Positions 129 to 54,800 of a stretch of DNA of 64,000 nt are shown piece by piece (the first letter of the stretch is position 1; each line of letters starts with the position of its first letter). The stretch comes from Pseudomonadota bacterium (GTDB lineage Bacteria; Pseudomonadota; Alphaproteobacteria; Rs-D84): assembly GCA_023402015.1 (NCBI GenBank), contig JAEXCU010000015.1, positions 67,879 to 131,878 on the forward strand, in the 5' to 3' direction. The position numbers and the translations under genes were made by a program. The notes under the pieces were generated by a model. It made no database searches, had not been told where the DNA came from, and worked only from the letters and a program-made list of their open reading frames with translations.

Positions 129-136
129 TTTGCATT

Positions 137-15314: not shown

Positions 15315-15366
15315 TGTACATACTCCTTTTTAAGTACAGATGTATGTTGAGAAGAAAAAACACTAA

Positions 15367-17671: not shown

Positions 17672-17674
17672 GGC

Positions 17675-19249: not shown

Positions 19250-19265
19250 TTCCTGAATCCTTTAA

Positions 19266-22064
<2,799 letters not shown>

Positions 22065-24581: not shown

Positions 24582-24655
24582 TGGTTGGGGCGCACGGATT
24601 CGAACCATGATAAAGAGAACCAAAATCTCTTGTCCTACCATTAGACGACACCCCA
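24582..24655 (-). tRNA. tRNA-Gln (anticodon UUG)
   Basis: Hand-folded, 74 nt: TGGGGTG TC GTC..GAC A AGAGA TTTTGGT TCTCT TTATC ATGGT? TTCGAAT .. CGCCCCA A CCA. Confidence 0.85.
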
Positions 24656-25025: not shown

Positions 25026-25031
25026 GTGCCT

Positions 25032-27464
25032 ATGGCGGTAAAGTTCAAAGATTTCATGTTAAATTGGTACAAGGCGTATCATCTGTACAACATGGATGAC
25101 CCGCGAAAACAACGTTGGGCCGATTTGCGTGGAAAATCGTACGAAATTAATTCCAAGGGCGAATATGTATATTTGGAAGACGCGCGAAACGGTGTGCAAA
25201 AGGGATGGGCAAATCCAAAAACAGGGGAATTGGCAACTGAATTGCCGTTGCCGGATTTAAGTGAAGAAGATTGGGAATATTTTTATCGCCTGTGTCGCAC
25301 GGCAATACGAAACATTAATGACAAACGCGAAGATTTGTTGCGAAATGACCCTGATAAAAACCCATTGCCGATTGATAAATGGTTCGGCAGTAAGAATTTA
25401 AAGGCGTTCAGTGTTCAAGAGGTCAAGCAACCAATCAAAGACAAACTGAAACAATTTGCATCGGTGGTATTGGAAACGCCACGATTGAAAAACAAACTGA
25501 TGGACAGTTTTTCTGCTGATTATTCCATAGATACATTTTTGGCCGATTTAATTGACCAGGATTATTCGCGTAATTCGCAATTTACAATTGCGAAAATTCA
25601 AACTCTGGTGCGTATATTACCGGGACTGTTGCGTCCGGAATATGATTTCAAGGTCGGTGATTATAAAAATCCATTTGATGATAAAACCAATGACGCGATT
25701 CAACGCATATTTATTGGTACCGGTTATGACCCGATTGCCGGAATTGCAATGGATGATTTGGAAAATCAGTTTGATGAAATATCCGCCGAATTGGACCCCG
25801 CGAACGAGCAAATAAACCCAATGCAATTGGCGCAGTTTAAACACCCCAGTGTTTATAAAGAAATATTAAAGGCATTGTATGCGCCGGACAAACCAGAAAA
25901 GAAATCGCCATTTCATTCCCAATTTGCATCCAACGGTGGTGGGGAAATCACGGGATACATGAACGAAGTTGTTGGTGGGAATAATTATGAATCCGGCGCA
26001 AACGAATTGGTCCCGAAACTGGGCAAAGAATTAAATATCCGTGAACAGTTTAATAAAAAAATCGGTGATTTTCAGGACGAACATTTTTTGCGTCTGACGG
26101 ACCGCGCGGCCCGGCATGTTTACATAGAACCCGCCGCCAAAGGCATTGTGGATGCAATTATTAAAGAAAAAATATCCCCAACGGATGGATTGAGCAAAAT
26201 CATTGAAAAAAAGGATGCCATTGCAAAACGCGTCCAGGCCAAATCACCCGTCAGCAAAAAGGGGTGTGATTTTTTCTTTGAAGCGCTGTCATATATCCAG
26301 GCGTCCGGCGACATGGACGAAGCGTTATCCGGCGCATTAAAAAATGGTCGCAAGGCCGAGGCAATTGCATTTGAAATAATAAAATATGCAATTTCCAAAC
26401 GTAAAATTAACGAAGCCAAGGCCGCATTGGAAGTCTTCGCAGTTATGCGGTACGATACTTTTTCGTCCGCCCATTGGAATGATTTAAAGAAATCCCAAAA
26501 CGATATCTTTGGCGACAAAAATTTGTCTTTTAATAAAAATGAAACCATGTCGTTTTTAACCCGCGCATTGGATAAAACGATTTGGTTGGGTGTTAATGGT
26601 GCATTTTGGACCGGCGTTTTGACACGCAATTTAATTCAACACGGTCGCGGTAAAATGTCGCCTGATGATATGGCACGTATGAAATCGGCACTGACGAAAA
26701 TAAATGCAGACAGCCAAGAATTCACAAATCTGGCCGATGCGCAGGCGCAACATAATGAAATCCGTACGCAATTATTGGCCGCCCAGGAAAATTTTGGTTA
26801 TGCAATGATTCTGCGCGATGAATATGGTGAATTAAATAATGAAATCACACGTTTGGAATCTAAAATCCCCGCGGCCACCAAAGATACAGATTTATCACGT
26901 TTAACTGCGTTGCAGAATGAAATTGCCGTTAAAAAAGATGCGCGGGACAAAATGCATTCAAAGTTAACGGCGCATGCCGATGAATTTGTGAAATTGGATG
27001 AATTGCAACATAAAATAAAGGGTTTAAATCACGAAATTGCCGCCCAGGGTGATGCGCTGCGAACAGAAACAGATGCGGCGCGCATAAATATAATTCGCGA
27101 TGAATTAGAAACCAAGAACAAACAGTTAAAATTATACAGTGGGTGTTTAAATGTATACGATAAAATGCGTCAAGACTATATGGAATTGGAACGCGAAGAC
27201 CGTGTCGCCCAGGAATTGGCCACGCGATTGGGCGCCGCGGCCGAACGTGGGCACGCCAAGGAAACAGATTCCAAACCATATAATGCGCCCAAATCAGATA
27301 TTCAAAATATGCAAATGCTGATGGCATTTTGGAATGCGGCAAACGGTTATACGCGCGGAATTAATGTTAATTCGTATAATATTTTACGTAATATAAAAAA
27401 TGTTCGCAAAAATGCAAATCTGCAAAAGACATTTAATCAAATGGTAAATTACGAACACGAATAA
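25032..27464 (+). CDS. large hypothetical protein (810 aa from ATG 25032), with a coiled-coil-rich C-terminal third
   Basis: A long uninterrupted ORF with no signal peptide and no motif I recognise. Confidence 0.7.
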   Translation: MAVKFKDFMLNWYKAYHLYNMDDPRKQRWADLRGKSYEINSKGEYVYLEDARNGVQKGWANPKTGELATELPLPDLSEEDWEYFYRLCRTAIRNINDKREDLLRNDPDKNPLPIDKWFGSKNLKAFSVQEVKQPIKDKLKQFASVVLETPRLKNKLMDSFSADYSIDTFLADLIDQDYSRNSQFTIAKIQTLVRILPGLLRPEYDFKVGDYKNPFDDKTNDAIQRIFIGTGYDPIAGIAMDDLENQFDEISAELDPANEQINPMQLAQFKHPSVYKEILKALYAPDKPEKKSPFHSQFASNGGGEITGYMNEVVGGNNYESGANELVPKLGKELNIREQFNKKIGDFQDEHFLRLTDRAARHVYIEPAAKGIVDAIIKEKISPTDGLSKIIEKKDAIAKRVQAKSPVSKKGCDFFFEALSYIQASGDMDEALSGALKNGRKAEAIAFEIIKYAISKRKINEAKAALEVFAVMRYDTFSSAHWNDLKKSQNDIFGDKNLSFNKNETMSFLTRALDKTIWLGVNGAFWTGVLTRNLIQHGRGKMSPDDMARMKSALTKINADSQEFTNLADAQAQHNEIRTQLLAAQENFGYAMILRDEYGELNNEITRLESKIPAATKDTDLSRLTALQNEIAVKKDARDKMHSKLTAHADEFVKLDELQHKIKGLNHEIAAQGDALRTETDAARINIIRDELETKNKQLKLYSGCLNVYDKMRQDYMELEREDRVAQELATRLGAAAERGHAKETDSKPYNAPKSDIQNMQMLMAFWNAANGYTRGINVNSYNILRNIKNVRKNANLQKTFNQMVNYEHE

Positions 27465-27594: not shown

Positions 27595-28044
27595 ATGTCG
27601 CGCAAGGAATTTATTCGCCTGATGGAATCTAATATTTGGATTCTGGACAAATTGTCTGCACGTCTGAAACGGGAACCATTTGGTTTGTCGGGTTATCCAC
27701 GTCAACAAATGGCAATCTTGGTTCGTTTGCATGTGGGGGGGCGGGCCAGATTAAAAGATATCGCAATTCGTGAAATGGCAACAACGCCAAATCTGTGTGC
27801 TGCGTTCAGAAAATTAGAACGCGACGGGTTGGTTGCGCGCGCGATTGATGAACAAGACCGTCGCAACACATGGTATTCGTGCACACCGGCCGGTTCTGAA
27901 ATGGCATGTCGGGCATTGGATACATTTCGCGATGGTATTGAAAAATTGTTCAGTGGACTAAGTCGTGAAGACGAAGATGCATTGACGGGTGCGCTGAAAA
28001 CAATGAACAAAGTGTTAACAAAGATGGAGATAAGTAATGCATAA
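27595..28044 (+). CDS. MarR-family transcriptional regulator
   Basis: Winged-HTH core LKDIAIREMATTPNLCAAFRKLERDGLVARAIDEQDRRN. Confidence 0.85.
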   Translation: MSRKEFIRLMESNIWILDKLSARLKREPFGLSGYPRQQMAILVRLHVGGRARLKDIAIREMATTPNLCAAFRKLERDGLVARAIDEQDRRNTWYSCTPAGSEMACRALDTFRDGIEKLFSGLSREDEDALTGALKTMNKVLTKMEISNA

Positions 28045-29368
28045 AACAAGACTGGTATCAGTTTGTGCTGTTATATGTTTGGGGGTTGTGGGACAAAACG
28101 CCATGGCATTGGATTTGTCGCTGAACGATACGATTGAAAAAATCGTTCATGAATCCCAGGATGTGAAAAAGGCCGATGCAAACGTCAGCAAAGCGACCGC
28201 CCAATTGGCCGCCGCGAATGCAAACCGTTGGTTCAAGGTTGACGGAACCGCGACATATATGAACATGATAAACGTTGAAAATCCGTCAAAATCCAACGCG
28301 GTTGATTTGCCACCGGCGCTGGGGGGACTGATATCAGACAGTTTAAAGAACCAATCTGTTCATATTGAAATACCGGACAACATCTTTATGGTTGGTGTTT
28401 CCGTGTCCCAGCCGATTTACACGTTTGGTAAAATCGGTAATGCGGTCAACAGTGTAAAATCTGCAATTAAAATGACCAAGGCCAGTCGTGAATTAACCCT
28501 GCGCGAGGTTAAATACAGTGCGGCCGACATTTATTGGACCGCAAAAATGACAGATGAAATCGTCAAGATTGCACAATCTGATTTACAGTCCGCACGCGCC
28601 GCGCGTCGCAATCTGTCATCGGCGGGTCGTGCATCGCGCAGCAACCTGGTTAAAATTGAATCGGATATCGCAACCAAGGAAATAAACCTGTCCGATGCAG
28701 AGTTTAATCGTGATACCGCGTACAGAATGCTGAAAATTCTGGCGGGCATAGATATGGACGAAGAAATCACGCTGACTGATAATTTCCCCCAGACGTTTGG
28801 TGCCCTGGATGCGGGCAAATTGACCGCGAATCCGGAATGGGAAATATTAACCCAACAGGTTCAAATGTATGAATCCAAGGTCAAGGCCGCACGGGCGGAA
28901 TATTTGCCGACATTGGCGGCCACGGCGTCGTATAACTATGTCGCCATGGGTCAGGAATACGACAGCATGTTTGATAAAAAGGGCAGTCAGTCTGCATATT
29001 GGGGATTGGCGTTGCAGATTCCGATTTTTAACGGCGGCGCAACGCGCGCGAACGCAACCATGGACGCCATGGATGCCGAATCCGCGCGTCAAGATTTGGA
29101 TAAATCCAAAAAATTAAAAACCGAAGAATATGACAATGCGATAAAGAAATACAATCATTTACGTGGAAATTTGGCGACATTGGAAAATGCCAGAAACCTG
29201 GCCGCCAAGGCATATAAATTTTCCCAGGACCGCTTTGCGTCTGGGCAAACATCTGCGGTGGAGTTGGCCGAAGTGTCTGCGGGTCTGTACCAGTTGGACA
29301 TGGCGTTGTTAAATGCAAAATACAATATTTTGATGTCGGCGGAATCTGTTAAAAAATTGGGTGAATAA
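28037..29368 (+). CDS. TolC-family outer-membrane efflux protein
   Basis: A signal peptide and the two-repeat OEP architecture (LSLNDTIEK..., ...AVELAEVSAGLYQLDMALLNAKYN). Confidence 0.85.
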   Translation: MHKTRLVSVCAVICLGVVGQNAMALDLSLNDTIEKIVHESQDVKKADANVSKATAQLAAANANRWFKVDGTATYMNMINVENPSKSNAVDLPPALGGLISDSLKNQSVHIEIPDNIFMVGVSVSQPIYTFGKIGNAVNSVKSAIKMTKASRELTLREVKYSAADIYWTAKMTDEIVKIAQSDLQSARAARRNLSSAGRASRSNLVKIESDIATKEINLSDAEFNRDTAYRMLKILAGIDMDEEITLTDNFPQTFGALDAGKLTANPEWEILTQQVQMYESKVKAARAEYLPTLAATASYNYVAMGQEYDSMFDKKGSQSAYWGLALQIPIFNGGATRANATMDAMDAESARQDLDKSKKLKTEEYDNAIKKYNHLRGNLATLENARNLAAKAYKFSQDRFASGQTSAVELAEVSAGLYQLDMALLNAKYNILMSAESVKKLGE

Positions 29369-30018: not shown

Positions 30019-33000
30019 ATGCTGAAATTCTTCGTAAGCAGACCCATCACTACGCTGATGTTTGTATTGTTTTGGGTTGTTTTGGGATTGGTGTCTTTCC
30101 CAAAAATGAACATTGAACGTACGCCGTCATTGGACTTTCCCATGGTTACGGCCACATTTGTTTATCCGGGCGCGGAACCTGCGGAAATAGAATCCCAGGT
30201 TATTAAAAAGGCCGAAGATGCAATATCCGAGGTTGCCGGATTAAAGAAAATAACATCCCAGGCATTCGAGAACGGCGGGTATGTTATGGCTGAATTCAAC
30301 CTGGGCGTGAATGTTAACGACAAAGCGTCCGAGGTTAAAACCAAAATTGACGCGTTGGCATCGGAATTTCCAGATGATTTAAAACAACCTGTGGTTGAAA
30401 AATTGAATCCATTACAAGAATCTGTGGTGGACATCGTTTTGCGTGGTGCAGATGCGCGTGATTTAGAAGAATATGTTGATAACACATTGGCCACAAAAAT
30501 CACCGCGATAAATGGTGTTGCCAGTGTATCTGTTTTCGGTGGTCGCGAACGCGCGGTTCGCATTCAAATGGACCCGGATCAAATGGCGGCCCGTGGCGTT
30601 ACAATTATGGATATTGTATCTGCGCTGGGGAATAAAAACCTGAACGTGCCTGGCGGTAAAATTGAAAGTGGAACCGCATCGTCCAACGTGCGCTTTATTG
30701 GTGAATTTGCCATGGTTGATGAAATTGAAAACCTGCAAATCGTTACCATGGAAGGCCAAAAGTTCAAAGTATCAGATGTTGCCACCGTGGTGGATGCCGC
30801 GCGCGATATTGAAACCGGTGCACGTTATAACGGCCAAGACGTCGTGGTTGCATCCGTGGTCAAGGCATCTGACGGTAATGCAATTAAAATTTCCAACGCA
30901 TTGCGCGAAAAATTGCCTGATTTCCAGGCGGACATGCAGGCCCGTTTCCCAAATGCAGAAATGCAGATTGTGTCCGATTCATCCATTTCAATTGCTGATG
31001 AAACATACAGCACAATTTGGGGTATCGTACTGGGGATTATATTCACGATTTTGGTTTTGTTGGCGTTTACACGCAACTGGCGTTCCACAATTATTGCGGG
31101 TGCGGTTATTCCGGCGTCCTTGATTGCGGGATTCTTCTTTATGGATGCCAATGGATTTACAATCAATGCGATGACGTTGTTGGCGTATTCATCTGCGCTG
31201 GGGACGTTGGTGTCTAATGCGATTATTCTGATTGAGTCTGCATTACAGGAAATGCACAAAGGTAAAAATCCAGAAAACGCCGCAATTGACGGTACCAAGA
31301 AAGTCGCGGTTTCCGTTTTGGCGGGCGTTGGAACAAACGTTGTTGTGTTCTTGCCGTTGGCATTTATGGGCGGAATTGCGGGTCAATTCATGTCCCAGTT
31401 TGGTATGACGGTTGTGTATTTAACATTGTTATCATTGATGTTCTCTTTCACGTTGGCACCAATGATGATTGCAAAATTCCTGCGTCTGACCGCGCCGGTT
31501 GATAAAAAATCACCGGTTGCAAATGATGCACCGGTGCCGGTTGAAAAGACGCCGTTGCGTCAATGGTTTGATTTTCAATTTCGTCGTCCGGGATTGGTTG
31601 TTGGTGGTGCATTCGTGATTTTAATTGCATCTGCCATGTTGATGAAATTCGTCGGTAATGAATTTACACCGTCAACCGATACAAATGAAATCACCATAAC
31701 GGCGCGCGCGCCAATGGGTGCAACATTTGAAAAATCGCAACATATTGCCGAACAAATAGAAGATGTTTTGGCCCAATTCCCAGATGTCAAGGCGACGACT
31801 GTGAAAATCGGTGAACGCGGTTTGCAAAATATTACAGTAAAACTGGAATTGCAAGAATTGGGCCCGCGCAAGATTTCCGACAAACAATTGGCACGTGATA
31901 TTCTGCCCCGTTTGGCGGAAATTCCCGATACAGAATTTCAAATCAAGGCCGGTGCCGGAATGTCTTCGTCAATTTCATCGGATATGGTGTTAAATATTTA
32001 CGGTGAAGATGACGCAAAACGCGGGGCGTATGCAGACCAGATTCTGAAAATGATAAATGAAATTCCAGAAGTGCAAACGGCCGTCTTTGCGGTATTGCCA
32101 CCCAACAATGAAATTCAATTTGTGGCGGACCAGGCGAAAATGAATTTCTGGGGAGTGTCCAATGCATATGCTGGCGCGGCATTGCGCGCGGCCCTGTATG
32201 GCAACGACGATTACAAATACAAAGAACGCGGCGAAGAATATCCAATTATTGTTGAATTTGCCAAACCGTTTAAAAATGGTGCATTGTTTGACAATGTGTA
32301 TGTAAATTCACAAAAGGGTATGGTTTCAGTATCTGAATTGGGTGAAATCAAACGCCTGCCTGCGACGCCAAACATTAATCGTTTGGATAAAAACAGAATT
32401 ACCGAAATTGACATTAATATCGGTAAATCCACAATGGGGCCTGTTCAGCAAAAAATTCAGGCCGGTCTGGATGAAATGGAATGGGAAATGGGATATTATG
32501 CCGAATTTGGTGGAATGTCTGAAACCCAGGATGAAACAACCGGTGAAATCGGCCAGGCGTTCTTGCTGGCAACAATTCTGACGTTCATGTTGTTGGCGGC
32601 GATATTGAATTCACTGGTTCATCCGTTTACCATTGCAACGTCCATTATCACCAGTTTTGCCGGCGTGTTCATCATGCTGTTCCTGTCGGGGGCATCAATG
32701 AACGTTGGGGCCATGTTGGCGTTCGTTATGTTGGTCGGATTGGTGGTTAACAATAACATTTTGGTGTTGGAACCAACGATTAAGCGAATATCCGAAGGTG
32801 CGGTCCCACGCGTTGCATTGTGGACAGAATTAACAGATAAAAAGAACATGGTGTTAATGACATCTATCGCGGTTGTAACGGGTATGTTGCCCCAGTTATG
32901 GTCAACCGACGGTATGAAGGTCGCCATGGCGGCGGTTATGATTGGTGGTATGTTGGCATCCCTGGTGTGGACATTTACATTAACACCCGCGCTGTTCTTC

Positions 33001-33084
33001 TTATTGGAAGGTTTGCGCGAACGGGTCAAAGCAAAACGCCGCGTTCATAAAATCGCACGCAAAACCAAGAAAGTGAAAAAATAA
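30019..33084 (+). CDS. RND-family efflux transporter permease (AcrB-like)
   Basis: A 1021-aa protein with a 12-TM layout, two large periplasmic loops and an AcrB-type N-terminus. Confidence 0.9.
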   Translation: MLKFFVSRPITTLMFVLFWVVLGLVSFPKMNIERTPSLDFPMVTATFVYPGAEPAEIESQVIKKAEDAISEVAGLKKITSQAFENGGYVMAEFNLGVNVNDKASEVKTKIDALASEFPDDLKQPVVEKLNPLQESVVDIVLRGADARDLEEYVDNTLATKITAINGVASVSVFGGRERAVRIQMDPDQMAARGVTIMDIVSALGNKNLNVPGGKIESGTASSNVRFIGEFAMVDEIENLQIVTMEGQKFKVSDVATVVDAARDIETGARYNGQDVVVASVVKASDGNAIKISNALREKLPDFQADMQARFPNAEMQIVSDSSISIADETYSTIWGIVLGIIFTILVLLAFTRNWRSTIIAGAVIPASLIAGFFFMDANGFTINAMTLLAYSSALGTLVSNAIILIESALQEMHKGKNPENAAIDGTKKVAVSVLAGVGTNVVVFLPLAFMGGIAGQFMSQFGMTVVYLTLLSLMFSFTLAPMMIAKFLRLTAPVDKKSPVANDAPVPVEKTPLRQWFDFQFRRPGLVVGGAFVILIASAMLMKFVGNEFTPSTDTNEITITARAPMGATFEKSQHIAEQIEDVLAQFPDVKATTVKIGERGLQNITVKLELQELGPRKISDKQLARDILPRLAEIPDTEFQIKAGAGMSSSISSDMVLNIYGEDDAKRGAYADQILKMINEIPEVQTAVFAVLPPNNEIQFVADQAKMNFWGVSNAYAGAALRAALYGNDDYKYKERGEEYPIIVEFAKPFKNGALFDNVYVNSQKGMVSVSELGEIKRLPATPNINRLDKNRITEIDINIGKSTMGPVQQKIQAGLDEMEWEMGYYAEFGGMSETQDETTGEIGQAFLLATILTFMLLAAILNSLVHPFTIATSIITSFAGVFIMLFLSGASMNVGAMLAFVMLVGLVVNNNILVLEPTIKRISEGAVPRVALWTELTDKKNMVLMTSIAVVTGMLPQLWSTDGMKVAMAAVMIGGMLASLVWTFTLTPALFFLLEGLRERVKAKRRVHKIARKTKKVKK

Positions 33085-37009: not shown

Positions 37010-37752
37010 TGACACGATACAGATTAATTCTTGAATACGACGGCACAGATTTAATCGGGTGGCAGGAAAACCGCCAGGGCCCGTCTGTTCAATCATTGGT
37101 TCGGGATGCGATTTTTTCGTTCTGTGGCACGCGGCCGGATGTTGTTGCCGCCGGACGGACGGATGCGGGTGTTCATGCGGTTGCAATGGTTGCGCATTTT
37201 GATTTACCGAATGACGTAGATGCGGAAACCGTTATGCGGGCGTTGAACTTTTACCTGGCCAATGCACCGGTTTCCGTTTTGGATTGCGCGGTTGTACCGG
37301 ATGATTTTAACGCACGATTTGATTGCATTGCCCGCCATTACAAATATGTTGTTTTAAATCGGCGCGCGGCACCGGTATTGAACCGAAATCGTGTCTGGTG
37401 GGTTCCGCGGCCATTAAATTTGCGTGCGATGCGCGCGGCCGCAAAACAATTAATTGGTCAACACGATTTCACCAGTTTTCGCGCCACCCAATGCCAGGCA
37501 CGCAGTCCGATTAAAACCCTGGATAAATGCAAGATTACCTGCCGCGGCGATGAAATCATATTTGAATTTTCTGCGCGGTCATTCCTGCATCATCAGGTGC
37601 GCAATATTGTTGGGACTTTGGTTGAAATTGGGTTGGGCAAACCATATAATATCGCGGAAATATTTGCGGCCCGTAATCGCAGTGCCGCCGGACCAACCGC
37701 GCCGGCATCGGGTTTATATTTTATGGCCGCGGATTATGCCAATAACGATTAG
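37009..37752 (+). CDS. truA: tRNA pseudouridine(38-40) synthase TruA
   Basis: Motifs RYRLILEYDGT..GWQ and GRTDAGVHA. Confidence 0.9.
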   Translation: MTRYRLILEYDGTDLIGWQENRQGPSVQSLVRDAIFSFCGTRPDVVAAGRTDAGVHAVAMVAHFDLPNDVDAETVMRALNFYLANAPVSVLDCAVVPDDFNARFDCIARHYKYVVLNRRAAPVLNRNRVWWVPRPLNLRAMRAAAKQLIGQHDFTSFRATQCQARSPIKTLDKCKITCRGDEIIFEFSARSFLHHQVRNIVGTLVEIGLGKPYNIAEIFAARNRSAAGPTAPASGLYFMAADYANND

Positions 37753-39700
37753 TTTTTATGTAATTTATCCGTCCGGATTTATAAATCACCAGGCCACCAT
37801 TTAAAATCTTGTGATTACATTTTTCAGAATTAATTTGAAAATAAGAAACAATGTAATCTATGTTATCATCATTACATAACCGGGCGATATTGTTTTTCAA
37901 CGGAACAAATTTCTGGATATATGCCAAATTGAAATTTTCTGTTTTATAAATATAAACGCCATTGTCATGTGGGCGACGCCGGTTTGGTGTTTCAGGCGCC
38001 AGACCGTTTAATTGTTTCCATGTGCCGAATGCGAAATAATGGTTTGCCGCGCGTGATTTATTAAACGTCAGTTCGCCATTATCATAAAATCCAACCAATT
38101 CATGATCGTACGTTGCATAAAATACCGGCTTTGCACTTGTTGCAATAATTATCCCGGCAATTGTGATAAACACGCCAAATAAAATATAATTTGTGCGGGA
38201 CCGGTTGGTACGAATAAACATTAACGCCAGAAATCCCAAAATTATAAAACACATGGCGGAATTGGGAATGTGCGGCATAGGAATTGTTGCGCCGGGCAGC
38301 GTCGCGATTTTATGTGCGATATGTAATGTGAAATTATAAATTGTATCCGCCATGATTAATGGACCATGCCAACCCAATACTGCGGTAATTGTTCCAATCA
38401 TCACCAATGGCATAATCGCCACGGAAAATATTGGCAATAAAATCAAATTACCAATCAGGCCGTACATCGGCATGGTTCCAAAATGTGCAATTACAAATGG
38501 CGCGGTAAATATTGTTGCAACCACAGAAGTTAAAATTGTCGCGGTGATAAATTTCATAACTTTATTATTTGGCATTTTTGGTTTAACCGTTCCCCAAAAC
38601 CACACCAGGCCAAATATTGCAGAAAAAGACAATTGAAATCCCGCCTGCATAATGTAATGCGGATTCATCAGAAATATAATGCAAAATGCGACGCAGACAT
38701 TCCGCATGGAAATTGCATTACGACTGAAAATAAATGCGGCGAAAATCAATGTGGTCATCAAGAATGCACGAATTGTTGCAACATCTATGCCAGACAGAAA
38801 CAAATAAAACAGTAATCCAAACCATGCGCATATCATGGCCGGAATTCGTGCGGGAACGCGCCGTGTTATCGGTGCAATCAAACGAAAGATTAAATAAAAG
38901 AAACCAAACAACCAACCCGACACCAACGTCATATGAAATCCACTGATTGACCAGACATGACCAATGCCGGTTGCCGTCCATATCTTGCTTTCTTCTTTGG
39001 GAACTGAATTTTTATAACCCAAAACCAAACTGTCGGCCAAGAATGAATTTGTCCGCCGGTGTAAATATTCACGCATTGCATTTATGTTGGGGTAATTATG
39101 GTGATTAATTACATGAATATCTGTTAAATACCCTGTTGCGGTCAGGTGGTTGAAATACGCCCAACGTGCATAATCAAATGTCCCGGGCGCATCGGGCAGG
39201 GCCGGACGAAATAAATTCACCGTTGCGCGAACCGTGTCGCCAATTTCCGGTACGGGCATGTCATCGCCCATACTGACGCGGATAATTGCGGTTTTGCCGT
39301 TTGCACCAATTTGATCAGAATTTAGTTTCATGTAAATTCTGGCCCGGGAATCGGTATAGTCAATTTTCATTACGTGTGCCGTGATATCCATATTGCGAAC
39401 ATCGCGCGTCAGTTGCGGTGTTGAAATAAAATGTGTAAATGCCGCGGCATAGAAAAATCCGAATGCAAAAATAACTATGCCACGTGCCAACAACGGAATG
39501 CGTTTAATAAACATCAGTGCAAATAAAATCGCGGCAAATATGCCCGGGAAACCCAAATGTGGTTCCATGGGCAATGTGAAATATAAACCTGCGCCAAATG
39601 CCATTAAAAACGGCACCCACAGAAACACATTATGAAATTGGTTTTCCAATAAATCACGCATACGAAAAGTATAGGAATTTATATTGTAAATTGGCAACAT
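37721..39700 (-). CDS. comEC: ComEC/Rec2-family membrane protein
   Basis: A polytopic membrane protein with a competence-domain core and no beta-lactamase-like C-terminal domain. Confidence 0.8.
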   Translation of the reverse strand: MLPIYNINSYTFRMRDLLENQFHNVFLWVPFLMAFGAGLYFTLPMEPHLGFPGIFAAILFALMFIKRIPLLARGIVIFAFGFFYAAAFTHFISTPQLTRDVRNMDITAHVMKIDYTDSRARIYMKLNSDQIGANGKTAIIRVSMGDDMPVPEIGDTVRATVNLFRPALPDAPGTFDYARWAYFNHLTATGYLTDIHVINHHNYPNINAMREYLHRRTNSFLADSLVLGYKNSVPKEESKIWTATGIGHVWSISGFHMTLVSGWLFGFFYLIFRLIAPITRRVPARIPAMICAWFGLLFYLFLSGIDVATIRAFLMTTLIFAAFIFSRNAISMRNVCVAFCIIFLMNPHYIMQAGFQLSFSAIFGLVWFWGTVKPKMPNNKVMKFITATILTSVVATIFTAPFVIAHFGTMPMYGLIGNLILLPIFSVAIMPLVMIGTITAVLGWHGPLIMADTIYNFTLHIAHKIATLPGATIPMPHIPNSAMCFIILGFLALMFIRTNRSRTNYILFGVFITIAGIIIATSAKPVFYATYDHELVGFYDNGELTFNKSRAANHYFAFGTWKQLNGLAPETPNRRRPHDNGVYIYKTENFNLAYIQKFVPLKNNIARLCNDDNIDYIVSYFQINSEKCNHKILNGGLVIYKSGRINYIKTNRYWHNPRP

Positions 39701-41839: not shown

Positions 41840-43003
41840 ATGAAAAGACTGCTGGGCATTTTATTTTGTTGGTTGGCGTTTCCTGCATTTGGGGCGCAGT
41901 ATCGCGCGGCCCTGGTGGCCAATATGGACACCGGCCAGGTGTTGTACCAAGAAAACGCAAATGATGCGAATTATCCGGCATCGCTGACAAAAATAATGAC
42001 AATTTATCTGACGTTTGATGCGTTGGAACACGGGCGGTTGCATCTGGACGATTATTTAATCGTGTCGCAATCTGCGGCAAATGCGTCACCGGTAAAACTG
42101 GGCGTTGCCGCGGGCAGCAAGATTAAGGTTGAAGACGCGATTAAGGCCCTGACGGTGATGAGTGCGAATGACGTCGCCCGCGTTTTGGCCGAAAACTTAA
42201 AGGGCGGCAAAGAAGGAAATTTTGCCGATTTAATGACACGCGTGGCAACAGAAATCGGATTATCGCATACAAATTTTGAAAATTCATCCGGTTTGCCAAA
42301 TGACGATCACATGTCAACTGCGCGTGATATTGCGTTAATGTCCATGGCCGTGTATAAACATTTCCCACAATATTGGAAATATTTTGGAATAAAAACGTGG
42401 ACGTATAACGGCAAAACATACACAAATGGCAATCGCCTGCTGGGGACATATCCGGGTTGCGACGGGATGAAAACAGGTTTTACCAATAAATCGCGTTATT
42501 CATTGGTTGCAACGGCGCGGCGGAATGATACACATCTGATTGCGGTGGTATTGGGTGCAGAAAACAAAGACGTTCGTGCGGCGGTTGCGACACAATTGCT
42601 GGATCGCGGGTTTGCGATAAATTCTGGTGCATCCGCCCCGGTTGTTCGTAAAACGGACGTATCGCCGATTCAAAAAACGACGAATGTGAAATCGCCGACC
42701 CCGGCCGCCAACCCGGCCCCAACATTTACGGCCGCATACGCGGCGGCGACATCCGCACCGGCGGCAAAGTATACCGCCGCATCGTCCGGTACGGCGGGTG
42801 TACAATTCGGGGCATTTTCATCACGCGATGCGGCCACCGCACAGGTGGCGCGTGTAAAAAATGCATTAAATGCGAACGCGGTTGTGGAACCTGCGCCAAA
42901 TGGAATGTTTCGTGTGCGGGTAAATAATATGACTGAAACCGCGGCACAGAAATTGAAATCATCTGCCAGTGCAGCCGGCATTGACAGTTATATATTTCAC
43001 TAG
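41840..43003 (+). CDS. dacA: D-alanyl-D-alanine carboxypeptidase with a C-terminal SPOR domain
   Basis: SxxK motif PASLTK, SxN motif SANDVA and KTG motif. The SPOR-like tail is GVQFGAFSSRDAATAQ...GMFRVRVNNM. Confidence 0.85.
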   Translation: MKRLLGILFCWLAFPAFGAQYRAALVANMDTGQVLYQENANDANYPASLTKIMTIYLTFDALEHGRLHLDDYLIVSQSAANASPVKLGVAAGSKIKVEDAIKALTVMSANDVARVLAENLKGGKEGNFADLMTRVATEIGLSHTNFENSSGLPNDDHMSTARDIALMSMAVYKHFPQYWKYFGIKTWTYNGKTYTNGNRLLGTYPGCDGMKTGFTNKSRYSLVATARRNDTHLIAVVLGAENKDVRAAVATQLLDRGFAINSGASAPVVRKTDVSPIQKTTNVKSPTPAANPAPTFTAAYAAATSAPAAKYTAASSGTAGVQFGAFSSRDAATAQVARVKNALNANAVVEPAPNGMFRVRVNNMTETAAQKLKSSASAAGIDSYIFH

Positions 43004-48722: not shown

Positions 48723-49085
48723 TCAGATGCTGAATTTAAGAATAATATATCTGTATAATGCGTCGGGGGTTTGGATACGCATATGGTGCAGGCCAATTGC
48801 GCGTTTGGTAAATATTACGCATGTTGGTACGCGGCGGGCATCAATTGTGGGTGTCGGTTGACTGCCCGGCAAATATAAAAATTCCCATCCGTGCGCGCGC
48901 AGTATTTTTAAATCGCGCAATGACAGTGATATTTTTACGATATTGCTCGCACGTACAAATTGATACATTAAAAATGGTTTAGTCTTATTTGCCGTTAATA
49001 TAATTGGTGCACAATGGCGAAAATGGCGGCAAAGTATCCGCGGCAGAATCTTGGTCGTTTTGGTACAAAATGCAATAATAATCAT
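48723..49085 (-). CDS. hypothetical protein (120 aa)
   Basis: An ATG with a weak GGAAG RBS, lying downstream of the 115-aa gene. Its 3' part runs into the repeat cluster. Confidence 0.3.
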   Translation of the reverse strand: MIIIAFCTKTTKILPRILCRHFRHCAPIILTANKTKPFLMYQFVRASNIVKISLSLRDLKILRAHGWEFLYLPGSQPTPTIDARRVPTCVIFTKRAIGLHHMRIQTPDALYRYIILKFSI

Positions 49086-49127: not shown

Positions 49128-49475
49128 CTATTCAATCCAACCGCGGGCAGTGGCGGCCGTGCCAATTGTTGCCATTGCGCGACGCCATAAATCTGCGGCA
49201 CGATTTTCCGCATAAATATATTGATGTGGTGCGCGCCTACGGTCGCCAAATTTTTTCATAACGGATAATTGTTCTTCGTCCAATTTGCCCGACAAATACA
49301 GTTTGGTTATTAATGTTTCCACATCCAACAATTCGCATACACGTCGCGTGGCGCGGGAACCGTTATGTGTAAATCCGTTTTGCATAGATTTAGAATATAA
49401 AAACCAAAACCATAATTGTTCTGCATTTTGGAATTTTTCAGGGGTGTATACGGTTTTTACATTTTGTGTGGTCAT
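49128..49475 (-). CDS. hypothetical protein (115 aa from MTTQNV)
   Basis: A strong RBS (AAGGAG) and an ATG at 49475. No recognised motif. Confidence 0.6.
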   Translation of the reverse strand: MTTQNVKTVYTPEKFQNAEQLWFWFLYSKSMQNGFTHNGSRATRRVCELLDVETLITKLYLSGKLDEEQLSVMKKFGDRRRAPHQYIYAENRAADLWRRAMATIGTAATARGWIE

Positions 49476-49814
49476 TTTTGTTTTCTCCTTTTTATGACTT
49501 TCGTTTGTTTTACATATATAGAATAAGAATAGAATCCTGTAAAACATTACAACCAATGGTTGAAATACGATTCGGATTTCTGATTCTTTAATCATTTTTG
49601 TCTGGTGGCCTGCGAATCGTATAAAACGGTGCGAATGCCGGCCCCCGGCCGCGGAATTGTTAATAAAAAAAGCGCGCATTTGCGCGCACTTTAAATATAA
49701 AAGAAAATAACCCTCTCTGTTTTTTTGCTTTGCAAAAAACACCCCTCCGTTGGGGGGGGGATTTTGTTTTTATTTATATAATTCGTACCATAATGTTTTT
49801 CAATACCATGCAAT

Positions 49815-49843
49815 AAAAAACAAACCCGCCAAATGCGGGTTTG
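49815..49843 (-). terminator. Intrinsic terminator after virB10 (CAAACCCGC-ATTTG-GCGGGTTTG plus T-run on the minus strand)
   Basis: A perfect 9-bp stem lying 8 nt after the stop codon. Confidence 0.8.
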
Positions 49844-49851
49844 TTTGATAT

Positions 49852-52272
49852 TTATAATATCGGTGGGAAGCAATCGCCACCAGTTTCTGGACAACAATTA
49901 AATCCTTGGTCGCCCATGTCTGTATATATTTCCCCGGTACAGCATCCATTTGCGTCAGGGTTGGTACCGTCTTCGCATGTGATGATTGCGGCGGCCTGTT
50001 CTTCTTGCTTTTCCGCACCTGCAAACGGGTTTTGAATACTGCCGTCTTCGTTGTATGTCAGACCCAAAACCTCTTGATTATATTTCTGATCGCCGGCAAT
50101 TCCCGTCAGGCCCGTTCCAGATTGTGATACGTTGTAATTGTTCTGGAACTGTTGCTGTTGGTTCTGGTATACGGCATCCTGTTTGGCGTTGTTAATCGCC
50201 TGGTAATTCATGGATTGGCAATACATCAAAACTGTTCTGTAATCGTATCCGGCGTTGTTAATGGCGGCCTCTTGATTGGCCTTGATTCCCCATACGCCTT
50301 TGTTATCCTGGGTGCAATATTGCGTCAGGTTAAATGAACGTACCTGGCCGGTCCAAGAACCATCTTCGTAATTCGGTGTCGCATCACTGAGATGCGATGC
50401 GCGTGGTGTTGAACTGTATTCAGAAATCGCACATTTCTTGCCGGCATTTTCGGGATCATTGGGTGAACCGCATGTAACCAACAAATCAACCGGTGAATAC
50501 ACCGTTATACGCGTACCGGCCGCAATGGAAAATGGCGGCACAGTATTATCCATCATATCAACCAATAATTTCTGGGCAACCTGGTTCCATGCAGTGATGA
50601 TTTCATTCTTGGCCAATTCAGACGAACGAACCGTACCCGATTGCACAACCGTGTTATTGTCCAAATCAATTTGATTAATAAATGTATCAGATATTGGGGC
50701 AATCAAATTCACCGCCGCCGGAACAATTGCCGTTAACATCGGCATAATAAATTGTTCAACATAATCGGTACTGCCGCGGCCGGGTACACCAGAACGACCC
50801 TGAGAATCGGCGGAAAAAGGATTGTTGCCACCGAAATTAAATTCAACACCGTCCGGACGAATAAACTGGTACCATTTGATATCCATGCGCCCGACTGTTG
50901 TGTATGGTCCCGGCAGGGTACCCGTTACATATCCCAACATCAATGTTCCGGTTGGCAAAATAACCGTGCGGCCATTATCGGAATAAACATTACGGTCAAC
51001 CGTTGCACGCACCGGCAGGCCGGTCTTTAAAGCCTCGGTATCGGCCAAGATTTCAGAAACAATCGTTGCCGGTATTGGTTTATATTGACGCAAAATAAAA
51101 CTGCGGTCATATGGCATACTGGATACAACTGTTTCGCCCATTGCAGAACCCAAATAAGTTTTCGGGTCAATGCGCGATGGTTGTAATGCCACGCGGCCAA
51201 AACCACTGCCACTGGGGGCGGTGGCGGCACCACCAACGATTTCTTCGGTGGTTAATTGAAATGCGCGGTTAACACTTTTTGTTCCCGTTGGATTGGATAA
51301 TTGCGGTAATGTGCCATTTGTTATCGCAGTATATCCGATATGTTCCGCATCGGTTCCGATTTTTTTTGCTTTGTCATTTATATCAGTAATGATTCCATTA
51401 TCCGGGTTATACATCCCCGTAGGTGAATCACAATCTTTGTCGGCAAACGGGTGGAAATAATACGCACCGCGTTCGGGACGAATCCATCCAATCTGGACGC
51501 CAGATAAATTATATCCCGGAAATGCAAAGTCCGAACATGCCTCGGCCGGGATGTCAGATGTAATTGTGTCATTAACAACAATTTGTTCTGTGGCCGGTTG
51601 TGCGGGTGCAGATTTTTTTGCAAACGGATCGGATTCAGATGAAGATATCAGTTCTATTTCCTGGCGTATTTCTTCGCGGATTGGTTTTGGTTCCACCGGT
51701 GCCGGTTCAATCACAGGTTCCACAACCGGCGCGGTTTGCTTGGGTTGCTGGGGCGCGGTTGCCGGTGCCTGGGCGCCCAAAACCAAAATGATTTTGTCCG
51801 TTTTTTTCATTTCATCGGGTTCATTTGCCGCGCGCCAGTCAATAAATAATGCGGTTGTTTCCGGATTCATTGCGGTTGTTGGTTTGTATTCCAATACAAT
51901 TGTGCAGGACGCATTTTTATCAATCTGGCCCATACGGGTGCATGTTTGCTGGTCAGACAATCCGGGGATGTCCTTGGTCCGACGCACAGCCAAAACCTTG
52001 GCCGGGGCGGACGCAGATATTTTAACAGATTGTGTTTTTGTCGTTCCAACAGGTGTCTCGGCCCAGTTCACTGAATCTTGGGTCGGTGAAAAAATCAAAT
52101 TTACAGGCACGTCATCAACGTTTGCAATTTTTGTTTCTTTTTTACTTTTTCCGCTAAGCAACAAAGTCAACAAAATTAGTACCACAATAAATGCCGCCGC
52201 CAACAACAACCATTGAATGTGCTTTGGCGTCGTCTTGCGCAGGTCTGAAATTTGTTTTTTTATACTGGTCAT
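49852..52272 (-). CDS. virB10: VirB10/TrbI-family type IV secretion protein, greatly expanded (806 aa)
   Basis: An N-terminal TM helix, a Pro-rich linker (APQQPKQTAPVVEPVIEPAPVEPKP) and a TrbI core at about aa 385-598 (LPVRATVDRNVYSDNGRTVILPTGTLMLG...FSIAAGTRITVYSPVDL). It also carries the extra modules described in the findings. Confidence 0.85.
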   Translation of the reverse strand: MTSIKKQISDLRKTTPKHIQWLLLAAAFIVVLILLTLLLSGKSKKETKIANVDDVPVNLIFSPTQDSVNWAETPVGTTKTQSVKISASAPAKVLAVRRTKDIPGLSDQQTCTRMGQIDKNASCTIVLEYKPTTAMNPETTALFIDWRAANEPDEMKKTDKIILVLGAQAPATAPQQPKQTAPVVEPVIEPAPVEPKPIREEIRQEIELISSSESDPFAKKSAPAQPATEQIVVNDTITSDIPAEACSDFAFPGYNLSGVQIGWIRPERGAYYFHPFADKDCDSPTGMYNPDNGIITDINDKAKKIGTDAEHIGYTAITNGTLPQLSNPTGTKSVNRAFQLTTEEIVGGAATAPSGSGFGRVALQPSRIDPKTYLGSAMGETVVSSMPYDRSFILRQYKPIPATIVSEILADTEALKTGLPVRATVDRNVYSDNGRTVILPTGTLMLGYVTGTLPGPYTTVGRMDIKWYQFIRPDGVEFNFGGNNPFSADSQGRSGVPGRGSTDYVEQFIMPMLTAIVPAAVNLIAPISDTFINQIDLDNNTVVQSGTVRSSELAKNEIITAWNQVAQKLLVDMMDNTVPPFSIAAGTRITVYSPVDLLVTCGSPNDPENAGKKCAISEYSSTPRASHLSDATPNYEDGSWTGQVRSFNLTQYCTQDNKGVWGIKANQEAAINNAGYDYRTVLMYCQSMNYQAINNAKQDAVYQNQQQQFQNNYNVSQSGTGLTGIAGDQKYNQEVLGLTYNEDGSIQNPFAGAEKQEEQAAAIITCEDGTNPDANGCCTGEIYTDMGDQGFNCCPETGGDCFPPIL

Positions 52273-52289
52273 TATTTATATATCCGCCA

Positions 52290-53831
52290 CTATTGAATAC
52301 GTACAACGCTGCAACTGGCACCACTGAATTTTAACAGTTGGTCGCACAGTTTTTGCGCCGTATCTATGTCTGACAACGGCCCAATGCGCAGACGATACAG
52401 ACGTGCCGTGGATGAATCCGCACCTAAATCGCCAACGCCTTGTTCGTCAACCGCAAAGAACACCATGTCTTTGTACGGTGTCAGCAATCCCTGGCCGTCT
52501 TCGCCACTGAATTTTGCCAACATGCCCGTCCAATAATCGTCCAGTGCCTTGACAGATGTATCGGCCTTTAATTCAACGGCAACACCTGTTTGGTTGCTGG
52601 TAATCAATGGAATGTTTGATTGGGGCAGATAAGAACCCGCGGTCAAACGCGCCGTTGGCATCATAGAAACGCCATTGGTGCCATATGTTTGGGACGCGGC
52701 GGTTGAAAATCCGGCCGGCAAATAATATCCGGTTGTTGCATTGTTTGATGTATTGCCAATCATAACCGGTGTGCCTGTATAACTGACACCGGCCGCGTTA
52801 ATTGCCGCCTGGTCCATGCTGTATGCAATATTATTCAGCGATTGGCCCGACATCATGGATTGGGCAACATTTGCCTCGGCCAATGCCATGACAGATGCAG
52901 TATCGGCAATCAAGAACGGTTTTTCTCGTTTTTTGATGCAAACGATGCGCTGACCACTGCGCAGGACCATGTCGCCAACGGCCTCTACAATTAATAATCT
53001 GCCGTCTTCGCCGTCTGTGCGGAAACCAACGGGGGATTCGCCGCCTTCAACCAACAGGGATACAACCGGGCGCTGGGTCATGGCGATTACTTTGTCGCCA
53101 AAGTCAATGTATGTAAATATGCGGTCGCGCCATACACGCTCGGGTGCAATTACGTAATCATCCGGATTGGGAACAAATATATCCAAATCAAATCTGAATT
53201 CAGACGGGTCAATCTTCATTGATTTTATCCAACCGTAATCTTCGCCGTCAACACCGATTGTCGTACTGCCCGATTTTGCCTTTTTAAATATTGAACTGGC
53301 GCCGCCACCTGTGGTTGCAGTTGATGCAGTTGCGTTTGGCAATGTTGCGTTGCCGTCTAAAACGACGTCAACCTGGGAATATGTAATTTCGCTGGAATTA
53401 GATGGTTCGCTGCGCAGATAAAAGATATATTTATTTCCCGATTTACCCGTCACAATCAGGTTTGTATCAGATCCTTGGTTGCTGGCCTCAGGACTGATGA
53501 ACATTGTGCGGTCGCCCTGGTTTGCCTCAATCGTGAACAGACCCTGGTTTCCGATAACTGCGTCGGCGATTTGTTCGCCATTTGGCAATGAAACCATTGT
53601 AACCATTCCATTCCGCAGTTTAATTGGCAAAACACTGCCTGTGCCCCAACTCAGTTGTGCATATCCTGGCTTAATACTGCCCGATGCCATATTTGCGGTT
53701 GGGTTATCCCATGCCTCTTGCACACCGTAATTTGTGCCGGCGGCCATGACGGTCATGGGCGCGCCCAGCACGCAACATGCCCCCAGGCAGAAAACGGAAA
53801 CATTTAATTTAACTGCTTTTGAGAATGTCAT
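52290..53831 (-). CDS. virB9: VirB9/TrbG-family type IV secretion protein with a C-terminal SPOR-like domain (513 aa)
   Basis: A signal peptide, a VirB9 N-domain (MVTMVSLPNGEQI...NLIVTGKSGNKYIFYLRS), a C-domain (RIFTYIDFGDK...PVGFRTDG...LIVEAVGDMVLRSG), then ...RLYRLRIGPLSDIDTAQKLCDQL. Confidence 0.8.
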   Translation of the reverse strand: MTFSKAVKLNVSVFCLGACCVLGAPMTVMAAGTNYGVQEAWDNPTANMASGSIKPGYAQLSWGTGSVLPIKLRNGMVTMVSLPNGEQIADAVIGNQGLFTIEANQGDRTMFISPEASNQGSDTNLIVTGKSGNKYIFYLRSEPSNSSEITYSQVDVVLDGNATLPNATASTATTGGGASSIFKKAKSGSTTIGVDGEDYGWIKSMKIDPSEFRFDLDIFVPNPDDYVIAPERVWRDRIFTYIDFGDKVIAMTQRPVVSLLVEGGESPVGFRTDGEDGRLLIVEAVGDMVLRSGQRIVCIKKREKPFLIADTASVMALAEANVAQSMMSGQSLNNIAYSMDQAAINAAGVSYTGTPVMIGNTSNNATTGYYLPAGFSTAASQTYGTNGVSMMPTARLTAGSYLPQSNIPLITSNQTGVAVELKADTSVKALDDYWTGMLAKFSGEDGQGLLTPYKDMVFFAVDEQGVGDLGADSSTARLYRLRIGPLSDIDTAQKLCDQLLKFSGASCSVVRIQ

Positions 53832-53857: not shown

Positions 53858-54538
53858 TTATAAACCGCTGTTATTTAAATAACCGGTATCCAGTGGATCG
53901 CCATTGCCGGATTCAATTCTGTATTCTGCAACGCGGATGCCCAACGGGTTATTCAGGCGGTCTGACCATTTTATTGTCGCGTCGCCATCCAATTCCAATC
54001 TTAATACAATTGTATAATCTTTTTTATCTATCTGTCCATCACTATTTGCGCAGAAATAACTGAAACTGACGGCATAGGTATCATTTGAACGCGGGGCAAT
54101 GGCACCGGGCTGGAATTCCACAGGACATGTGAATTCAAAATCTGGCACATCGTTCATTAATGCCGTCCATAAATTCGTTTGGGTAAATGCATTGTAAACA
54201 TCCGACGTGGACCATGTGCGAACAATTCCATTTTCGTCATTGTTCCATTTTTGACACATTGTTTTTGTGTTCGGGACGATTTCATTGCGCGCCTTGATAT
54301 ATTCGCGTATAAATGCCCGTTTATAAATATCCAGATTTTCATCCGTTGGCGGTAATTCAGCCAACCGGATTTCCAAATCGCTGCGCGGTTGTGTCATCAA
54401 AAAGAACACCTGGGGGCGGTTCAGTGGGAACATTTTATACAATGTAATAATTAAAACCACCACCACGACCAACGCCGCGGCAAAGACAAATGTCATTATA
54501 CGTGATAGCAAAGTTGGCGGTTCTATGCGGTCTGGCAA
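53858..54538 (-). CDS. virB8: VirB8-family type IV secretion protein
   Basis: One TM helix plus an NTF2-like periplasmic domain ending NPLGIRVAEYRIE. The preferred start is TTG at 54538, 7 nt after GGGGGAG, with a TTGCAC-18 nt-TACAAT promoter at 54565-54594. The track start at TTG 54652 has no RBS. Confidence 0.75.
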   Translation of the reverse strand: MPDRIEPPTLLSRIMTFVFAAALVVVVVLIITLYKMFPLNRPQVFFLMTQPRSDLEIRLAELPPTDENLDIYKRAFIREYIKARNEIVPNTKTMCQKWNNDENGIVRTWSTSDVYNAFTQTNLWTALMNDVPDFEFTCPVEFQPGAIAPRSNDTYAVSFSYFCANSDGQIDKKDYTIVLRLELDGDATIKWSDRLNNPLGIRVAEYRIESGNGDPLDTGYLNNSGL

Positions 54539-54800
54539 CGTTTTTCTCCCCCTTGGATAAATGAATTGTAGACAAAATTGCGGCAATGGTGCAAGTAAAA
54601 AGTGCGCCAAATCTGTATTTTGCGGTCCAAAAAATCTGGTTTGGTCAGACAATATAAAAATGGGTGATTAATTTTTGCTTGCACGGGGCCGAAGAAAATC
54701 ATATAATACTTTCCACTTGATTTTTTATATTGCTGTGCTATTCTAGCGCAGACTATTGGGGTATAGCGGTACAAAAGACAGGTAAATATTGCATGAAATT

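Follow-up and report, generated by a model that had tools for sequence, protein, structure and literature searches.

What has been added to a VirB10 protein of about twice the canonical length, and where in the cell envelope would the additions lie? The question is raised by a 64,000-nucleotide stretch of contig JAEXCU010000015.1 (hereafter the window, meaning the whole of the DNA that was analysed) from Candidatus Enterousia (hereafter Enterousia), a group of gut Alphaproteobacteria in the order Rs-D84. These are partner-dependent bacteria with genomes of less than 1 Mb, and Enterousia is a strict fermenter in which respiratory chains are reported missing (PMC12306168). The open reading frame (ORF) in question, virB10, lies at 49852..52272 on the (-) strand, starts with ATG and encodes 806 amino acids (aa) plus a stop. 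It is a member of the VirB10/TrbI family, about double the canonical length and with three extra modules: an N-terminal beta-sandwich, a small domain ahead of the barrel and a tail behind it. An earlier reading of this DNA (here, the sequence-only reading) had described a VirB10/TrbI protein with three added modules, and that much is borne out; what it had proposed for the tail is taken up in the last section.

The VirB10 frame and the additions before the barrel

Agrobacterium VirB10, R388 TrwE and pKM101 TraF are built alike, from a transmembrane (TM) helix, a Pro-rich linker and a barrel with a two-helix antenna. The bitopic part of this layout is present in the Enterousia protein, with a short cytoplasmic N-terminus and one TM helix (aa 21-40; together 52153..52272, (-)) leading into a Pro-rich periplasmic linker. 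Helices are predicted by AlphaFold (AF2) at aa 2-14 and 17-39, and column identity in this segment is 0.78-0.91. The linker itself, aa 171-245 (51538..51762, (-)), is Pro/Glu-rich and disordered (predicted local distance difference test, pLDDT, <50) and represents the classical VirB10 Pro-rich region; its length varies, and its columns are 0.32-0.55 identical with gaps.

The TrbI/VirB10 barrel spans aa 385-598 (50479..51120, (-)) and was detected by Pfam, NCBIfam, PDB profile and Foldseek searches. PF03743 (TrbI; aa 396-592), which scores 63.7 bits where 35 are required, is the only Pfam domain above cut-off in the protein. The NCBIfam VirB10 model NF038091 matches aa 389-597 with 63.1 bits and does not reach its equivalog cut-off of 220, so the Enterousia protein is a family-level relative and not an equivalog; the ComB10 model NF038092 (50.9 bits against 300) is not reached either. 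When a full-length profile was searched against the PDB sequences, the matches were to the barrel only (CagY, E 3.7e-5; ComB10, E 0.006; TrwE), plus chance-level ones to RF2, and Foldseek matched the barrel to 8rt6_A, 7o3j_A, 6x6k_AY and 6odi_b, with TrwE and CagY among these. The core is 32-33% identical to that of rhizobial plasmid VirB10. Two long helices are predicted within it, a hydrophobic one at aa ~509-532 and another at aa ~550-576, with a nearly invariant loop between them and a pLDDT there of <50. The full-length AlphaFold model, made from an alignment of 76 homologues, has a mean pLDDT of 57 and four confident regions; the barrel is poorly modelled because that alignment is shallow. 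Sequence, AF2, Pfam and NCBIfam agree in locating the TM helix, the Pro-rich stretch (about aa 168-200) and the TrbI core where the sequence-only reading had put them.

Around this frame the proportions are unusual. The VirB10 of an Agrobacterium pAt plasmid has 403 aa, 179 of them before the core and 24 after it, whereas the Enterousia protein has 388 before and 209 after; canonical VirB10 is without the N-terminal domain, the mid beta-domain and the Cys-rich tail described here.

The first addition follows the TM helix and precedes the Pro-rich region, at aa 55-170 (51763..52110, (-)), and is confidently modelled (pLDDT 88-95) as an ASH/PapD-like beta-sandwich of the immunoglobulin (Ig) type, with the conserved cysteines C111 and C123. 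With a probability of 1.00, Foldseek relates it to the ASH domain of CEP192 (6fvi; target-normalised template-modelling score 0.57, root-mean-square deviation 3.4 Å), and further to HYDIN (2e6j) and the ASH domain of OCRL (3qbt). The sequence scores point the same way and stay below their cut-offs: Pfam ASH (PF15780) gives 17.0 bits against 27 and Cep192_D4 (PF22073) 17.4 against 35.5, both with E ~0.006, and NCBIfam choice_anch_D matches aa 62-134 weakly (E 4e-4). The fold matches and the weak family scores agree with the Ig- or ASH-like sandwich guessed earlier for the N-terminus. Set beside the ASH/PapD/MSP-type domains of CEP192, HYDIN and OCRL and their bacterial counterparts DUF1573 and choice-of-anchor D, the region thus defined matches in fold and only weakly in sequence; no description was found of a VirB10 that has such a domain inserted after its TM helix and before its Pro-rich region.

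The second addition, at aa 246-335 (51268..51537, (-)), is a small beta-rich domain with the invariant pair C246/C281 and six predicted strands, modelled at a pLDDT of 82-87 over aa 246-315. It has no Pfam match even at E<=1, no NCBIfam match and no match among the PDB sequences. The sequence-only reading had seen a Cys-containing insertion here at aa ~235-380; cysteines and a fold are indeed present over about aa 246-330, but the rest, as far as aa ~384, is variable linker.

Conservation follows these boundaries. In an alignment of 121 sequences (VirB10 and 120 homologues), 13 of the 14 cysteines are 100% conserved and the remaining one, C111, 95%. Column identity is 0.82-0.96 in the TrbI core, 0.95-0.97 in the module that ends the tail, 0.81-0.85 in the mid domain and 0.57-0.65 in the ASH domain, and it drops to 0.3-0.55 in the linkers, where there are insertions and deletions.

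The tail and its terminal six-cysteine module

The third addition, aa 599-806, is best described, from the alignment and the models, as a series of folded islands joined by variable linkers. It carries exactly ten cysteines (601, 614, 653, 685, 766, 777, 778, 793, 794 and 801), including the two CC pairs that the sequence-only reading had counted among ten. All four of its segments are encoded on the (-) strand. The tail starts at aa 599-640 (50353..50478) with the invariant pair C601/C614, after which the alignment shows a variable, indel-rich linker. There follows a predicted alpha/beta subdomain, aa 641-712 (50137..50352), with C653/C685 and the invariant motif GQxRSF, running out into a conserved Gln-rich helix; AlphaFold gives aa 650-690 a pLDDT of ~80-88 in the full-length model and ~80 in a model of the tail only. 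In the most divergent members of the clade, P0141 and P0144, C653 and C685 have been lost and the terminal module is retained. The Gln-rich segment, with the consensus DALYQNQQQQFQxNY, is conserved and lies inside a predicted long helix. The Gln/Asn-rich stretch of the sequence-only reading is therefore present, but not as low-complexity filler, and a prion-like reading of it was rejected on the same two grounds. A mostly variable linker, aa 713-764 (49981..50136), with a conserved YNxxxLGLxY...NPF motif in the alignment, leads to the terminal six-Cys module, aa 765-806 (49855..49980; column identity 0.95-0.97, pLDDT ~79).

Outside this lineage the tail matches nothing described. The tail-only model, built on a 23-sequence alignment, has a mean pLDDT of 59, and Foldseek found no match for it in the PDB at E<=0.001; on these two counts a fold cannot be assigned. 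Nor was the tail matched in Pfam, in NCBIfam, or among PDB sequences and folds. An exhaustive HMMER search with aa 599-806 through 1.84 billion representative proteins returned 212 matching proteins, in which the whole tail is confined to VirB10 orthologues of ~800 aa and to short ORFs that are mostly fragments; in one of the latter, P0134, the N-terminal part is unrelated. Literature searches gave nothing on Rs-D84 together with type IV secretion, nor on Cys-rich C-terminal extensions of VirB10. The earlier proposal that the tail is lineage-specific and uncharacterised is upheld by this, and no homologous extension already characterised in a known type IV secretion system (T4SS) subtype came to light.

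The last ~40-45 aa of the tail behave differently from the rest of it, since they recur as a C-terminal module in at least three to four other families of secreted or membrane-anchored proteins. The module has the consensus CxDGxxPDxNGCCxGExYTDMGxxGFNCCPxxGGDCFPP plus 1-3 residues, 329 of 416 instances keep its cysteine spacing, C-x10-CC-x14-CC-x6-C, and ~85% of these 416 stop 1-3 residues short of the C-terminus of their protein. One type of carrier is bitopic and 600-850 aa long: a conserved cytoplasmic domain is followed by a coiled coil, then by a TM helix and a long Pro-rich linker, with the module at the end. A second type comprises signal-peptide proteins of ~180-330 aa with one to three copies, and a third, of ~80 aa, has little more than a hydrophobic N-terminal helix and the module, and is often encoded right behind a signal-peptide carrier; one lipoprotein-like protein and one trypsin-like protease complete the set. 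Carriers are encoded in the same metagenome-assembled genomes (MAGs) as VirB10 (for example RGIG5256, with loci L044, L082 and L147). Neither the isolated module nor four of its carriers have a Pfam or NCBIfam match at E<=1, the known C-terminal sorting and anchor models included. A scan of 185,579 species genomes with a degenerate DNA motif found at least 119 matching stretches, and among the 80 motif loci listed the sources are only gut uncultured Alphaproteobacteria or Enterousia. By its sequence, the module appears to be restricted to this lineage without being specific to the T4SS, and is a candidate new domain family. In layout the bitopic carriers resemble VirB10 and TonB, inner-membrane proteins that extend towards the outer membrane from the periplasm. 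TonB likewise has an inner-membrane anchor, a Pro-rich linker and small C-terminal domain contacting outer-membrane partners. This is an analogy of design, and no sequence or fold relationship between TonB and the bitopic carriers was detected.

Two gene arrangements were seen around the carriers. Secreted module proteins of ~200-260 aa often directly precede the ~80-aa protein made of a TM helix and the module (L082:6001-6792; L170:251-1110; also at L173, L203, L209, L213, L220, L229, L232 and L255), and upstream of this pair there is a conserved order of a 451-aa gene of unknown function, a MacB/FtsX-type permease, an ATP-binding cassette (ABC) ATPase and a 212-aa gene of unknown function. 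In the circular Enterousia MAG OZ007020.1, a bitopic carrier divergently adjoins a short prepilin-peptidase-like gene (Peptidase_A24; L095:3044-7357 (-) and L095:7959-10190 (+)), and three proteins without a Pfam match (301, 395 and 570 aa) come next; this gene group is a possible pilus or secretion cluster of an uncharacterised kind.

Growth of VirB10 is not in itself new. CagY of Helicobacter pylori is likewise an "expanded" VirB10, and among PDB sequences the core is matched best by CagY and ComB10. What enlarges CagY is N-terminal repeats, its VirB10 domain standing at the very C-terminus, and neither CagY nor ComB10 has the tail or the six-Cys module; to our knowledge, the well-studied expanded VirB10 proteins (CagY, DotG) have all grown ahead of the barrel, towards the N-terminus. 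No VirB10 in the PDB, Pfam, NCBIfam or the literature searched is described as having an ASH domain, the mid domain or a Cys-rich tail behind the barrel.

The operon and its surroundings

As is canonical, virB10 is encoded directly after virB8 and virB9, on the same strand, in an order kept in 80 species. The first gene of this three-gene operon, virB8 (53858..54652, (-); Pfam PF04335, 52.1 bits against a cut-off of 23.2), encodes a protein whose conservation begins at about aa 32 in 75 related loci. The second, virB9 (52290..53831, (-)), is CagX-like (Pfam CagX, aa 59-301, 74.8 bits) and has its own extension of ~210 aa at the C-terminus, ending in a SPOR peptidoglycan-binding domain (aa 473-511, 22.3 bits against a cut-off of 21); at a median identity of 76.5% over 79 loci it is the most highly conserved of the three operon proteins. 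Its 513 aa compare with the ~270-300 aa usual for VirB9/CagX homologues, and a Ser/Thr/Asn-rich linker precedes the SPOR domain. An intrinsic terminator (49818..49846, (-)), with a 12-bp stem containing six G-C pairs and then a T-run, lies 5 nt past the TAA stop of virB10. Because it follows so directly, the operon comprises exactly virB8-virB9-virB10, and VirB10 truly ends with its tail. No VirB7-like gene was found between tRNA-Trp and virB8.

At all 80 species loci the order is rplA-rplK-nusG-secE, virB8-virB9-virB10, two small ORFs and yidC-lspA-kefC, which shows virB8-virB9-virB10 to be a chromosomally fixed, vertically inherited operon under strong constraint. That it belongs to a conjugative or mobile element was considered and rejected, the operon standing between tRNA-Trp-secE-nusG and yidC in every species and a relaxase or coupling protein being absent nearby. 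The two small ORFs past the terminator (49128-49742 (-) and 48723-49085 (-)) are kept in 70-76 related loci, and neither matches a Pfam or NCBIfam family; the real protein of the former probably has ~115-135 aa, as most loci show conservation only from about aa 70 onward.

The protein is widespread within its lineage. In a search of 5.8 billion proteins, more than 120 clusters align over 99-100% of the length of VirB10 at 56-67% identity, and a scan of one genome per GTDB species found 80 loci with full-length matches at 48-61% identity. These loci are labelled Candidatus Enterousia, uncultured Alphaproteobacteria or "Rickettsiales bacterium", and come from the guts of humans, ruminants, horse, chicken, mouse and termite. 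An Enterousia-type virB10 or a bitopic module protein is also held by records titled "Bacteroides fragilis" and "Muribaculaceae bacterium" (L052; L125, CAVGNU01; L162, CAZJGX01), and these bins are probably mislabelled or contaminated.

Canonical operons add virB1-B7, virB11 and virD4 in adjacent positions, whereas the Enterousia operon ends at virB10. Searched with Pfam, the 40 larger ORFs of the 64-kb window (all those of >=500 aa included) contain no VirB4, VirB6, VirB3, VirB2, VirB11 or VirD4, and of Agrobacterium VirB1-B11 and VirD4 only VirB9 and VirB10 were matched by tblastn in 286 related loci, which amount to 3.7 Mb from few genomic regions. The Rickettsiales rvh system offers a comparable setting: it belongs to Alphaproteobacteria of reduced genome, the genes for its T4SS lie dispersed over the chromosome in the midst of housekeeping genes and pass on vertically, and virB11 and virD4 come after virB8-virB9-virB10. 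In Enterousia a terminator and unrelated small ORFs stand in the place of virB11 and virD4, and neither an ASH domain nor a Cys tail is known from any rvh VirB10.

By analogy with Rickettsiales, the system could be effector or contact machinery. It could also have a ComB-like role in DNA uptake, since comEC and comF lie in the window: ComB is a chromosomal, non-conjugative T4SS that works with ComEC. The genes in question are a ComEC (Competence and DUF4131 domains) at 37721-39700 (-) and a ComF-like protein (double zinc ribbon and phosphoribosyltransferase) at 122-880 (+), and their retention in a genome of less than 1 Mb hints at DNA uptake, the function coupled to the ComB T4SS in Helicobacter. 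A third option is that the system could be a repurposed envelope scaffold.

Elsewhere in the window, a D-Ala-D-Ala carboxypeptidase (Peptidase_S11; 41840-43003 (+)) also ends in a SPOR domain, so that SPOR is seemingly a recurrent envelope-targeting module in this organism. An 812-aa ORF without a Pfam or NCBIfam match (25026-27464 (+)) lies upstream of a TolC-like gene (28037-29368), behind which come a 206-aa gene of unknown function and an AcrB-type resistance-nodulation-division (RND) pump (30019-33084). A low-GC island at 14361-22064, where GC falls to 0.32, contains a tyrosine integrase and two convergent hsdS genes followed by hsdM and hsdR; one hsdS is shortened, the two are 33% identical, and a 116-nt inverted repeat covers their conserved middle, as in a phase-variable type I restriction "shufflon". 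At the end of this restriction region is a large serine recombinase (22352-24409 (+)) with DUF2924, Resolvase and Recombinase domains. On its two sides lie tRNA-Glu (10516-10590) and tRNA-Gln (24582-24655) as boundaries of the region, which suggests an integrated element carrying a restriction system.

Placement and possible roles of the additions

VirB7, together with the C-terminal domains (CTDs) of VirB9 and VirB10, forms the O-layer. What reaches the surface in known VirB10 proteins is the loop between the antenna helices only (PMC9259494, citing Chandran 2009), and the chain should therefore be back on the periplasmic side before its C-terminus; a Strep tag at the C-terminus of TrwE/VirB10 is tolerated in a conjugation-proficient machine (PMC9259494). 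The tail of the Enterousia protein has no hydrophobic segment able to cross the outer membrane again. It would thus begin in the periplasm and most likely stay there, decorating and stabilising the core complex, and this periplasmic placement is favoured because the module is highly conserved, because it is found on inner-membrane-anchored, TonB-like proteins, and because a membrane-crossing segment is lacking. We give an even chance to the reading in which the additions are periplasmic structural decorations and the six-Cys module is a general envelope binding or docking module. The ASH-like Ig domain would stand just outside the inner membrane, the small beta-domain before the barrel and the 208-aa tail behind it, and together these periplasmic additions would make an "expanded" core complex out of a minimal one. 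The tail and the SPOR-tipped extension of VirB9 may have taken over stabilising or anchoring roles of small subunits such as VirB7, a suggestion backed by the lack of a VirB7-like gene near the operon and by VirB9 having a SPOR domain of its own. The terminal module, finally, would bind a partner common to all its carriers, or other copies of itself. Where the tail lies, whether its cysteines form disulfides or hold metal, and what the tail does are all matters that we infer.

Several points weigh against periplasmic decoration as just outlined. VirB4, VirB6, VirB11 and VirD4 were found neither in the window nor in the 286 loci, which come from few genomic regions, and AlphaFold models the barrel and a large part of the tail with low confidence (the means of 57 and 59 given above for the full-length and tail-only models). 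As respiratory chains are lacking (PMC12306168), a DsbA/DsbB disulfide pathway is uncertain and the cysteines could instead bind metal. The small Sec-exported carriers of the module could equally end up outside the cell.

That last point leads to what the sequence-only reading had suggested, a surface-exposed tail for adhesion or host contact. Here the 208-aa tail would be threaded through to the surface and its Cys-rich tip would serve the channel as an adhesin or as a device for contact with hosts or partners. A contact device would suit the partner-dependent Enterousia (PMC12306168), the tail does come after an outer-membrane-proximal barrel, Cys-rich knots are typical of extracellular proteins, and the module is also found on small signal-peptide proteins that are possibly secreted. 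We nevertheless think a surface tail unlikely: known VirB10 proteins expose the antenna loop only (PMC9259494), the tail offers no hydrophobic or amphipathic membrane-crossing segment, and the module, shared with Sec-exported proteins, also sits on inner-membrane bitopic proteins and on the minimal proteins of TM helix and module. Outside the core no folded part is more conserved than the module, and its 95-97%, set against variable linkers, is, moreover, the opposite of what is usual for an exposed contact surface.

The position of the module within its carriers bears on another explanation, to which we attach a rather low probability: that it is a C-terminal sorting or secretion tag, by the logic of the type IX secretion system (T9SS) CTD or of PEP-CTERM, read by a lineage-specific export or attachment pathway. 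In its extreme version it would mark periplasmic proteins for two-step export through a T4SS-like channel, as with pertussis toxin. The ~85% of 416 instances that finish 1-3 residues before the C-terminus are what such a tag would look like, though tandem internal copies exist. It is attached to unrelated N-terminal domains, among them those of a protease and a lipoprotein-like protein, but in some of its carriers an N-terminal TM helix provides a lasting inner-membrane anchor. Restriction to one lineage (among the motif loci listed) and a conserved neighbourhood in which module genes stand directly behind a MacB/LolCDE-type ABC transporter also speak for a dedicated pathway; no known NCBIfam sorting-signal model is matched, however, and a cleavable export tag would be odd on a structural subunit such as VirB10.

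The cysteines admit of yet another, improbable, interpretation, in which those of the tail serve as ligands of a metal (Zn or Fe) or as a redox switch and the tail is a regulator or sensor that gates the channel. The CC doublets and the invariant Asp, Glu and Gly around the cysteines would fit this, as would the uncertainty of oxidative folding in a strict fermenter without respiratory chains (PMC12306168), but the number of cysteines is even and the pairs 601/614 and 653/685 resemble ordinary disulfide clamps. The module is, besides, present on many proteins that have no obvious use for a sensor, and no metal-binding family was matched. Both the sorting-tag and the metal or redox explanations are partly compatible with periplasmic decoration.

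It is conceivable, and we consider it very improbable, that the module is a lineage-wide docking tag coupling Sec-exported and membrane proteins to the tail of VirB10, itself a carrier, so that the virB8-10 complex would form the outer-membrane exit of a two-step delivery route from periplasm to surface; if true, such a route would serve partner-dependent bacteria to contact or feed on other cells. That assembly or sequencing created the long ORF artificially by joining virB10 to a downstream gene, as might be imagined from the single short, chimeric or fragmentary-looking ORF P0134 in which an unrelated N-terminus meets the tail, can be dismissed with near certainty, and with it the sequencing-error fusion that the sequence-only reading had named as a danger, given an uninterrupted ORF in 80 independent species-level genomes and more than 120 clusters from different studies and assemblers, invariant cysteines and a terminator right behind the stop codon.

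To extend VirB10 behind the barrel by a conserved, folded segment would be a novel elaboration of the outer-membrane core complex, the more so in combination with a SPOR-tipped VirB9 and no visible VirB7. Enterousia and its relatives in Rs-D84 are widespread gut bacteria; their genomes are smaller than 1 Mb, none has been cultured, and it is puzzling how they acquire metabolites from their partners. A conserved complex derived from a T4SS, together with a family of proteins sharing its terminal module, provides concrete candidates for the machinery of this partner-dependent lifestyle.

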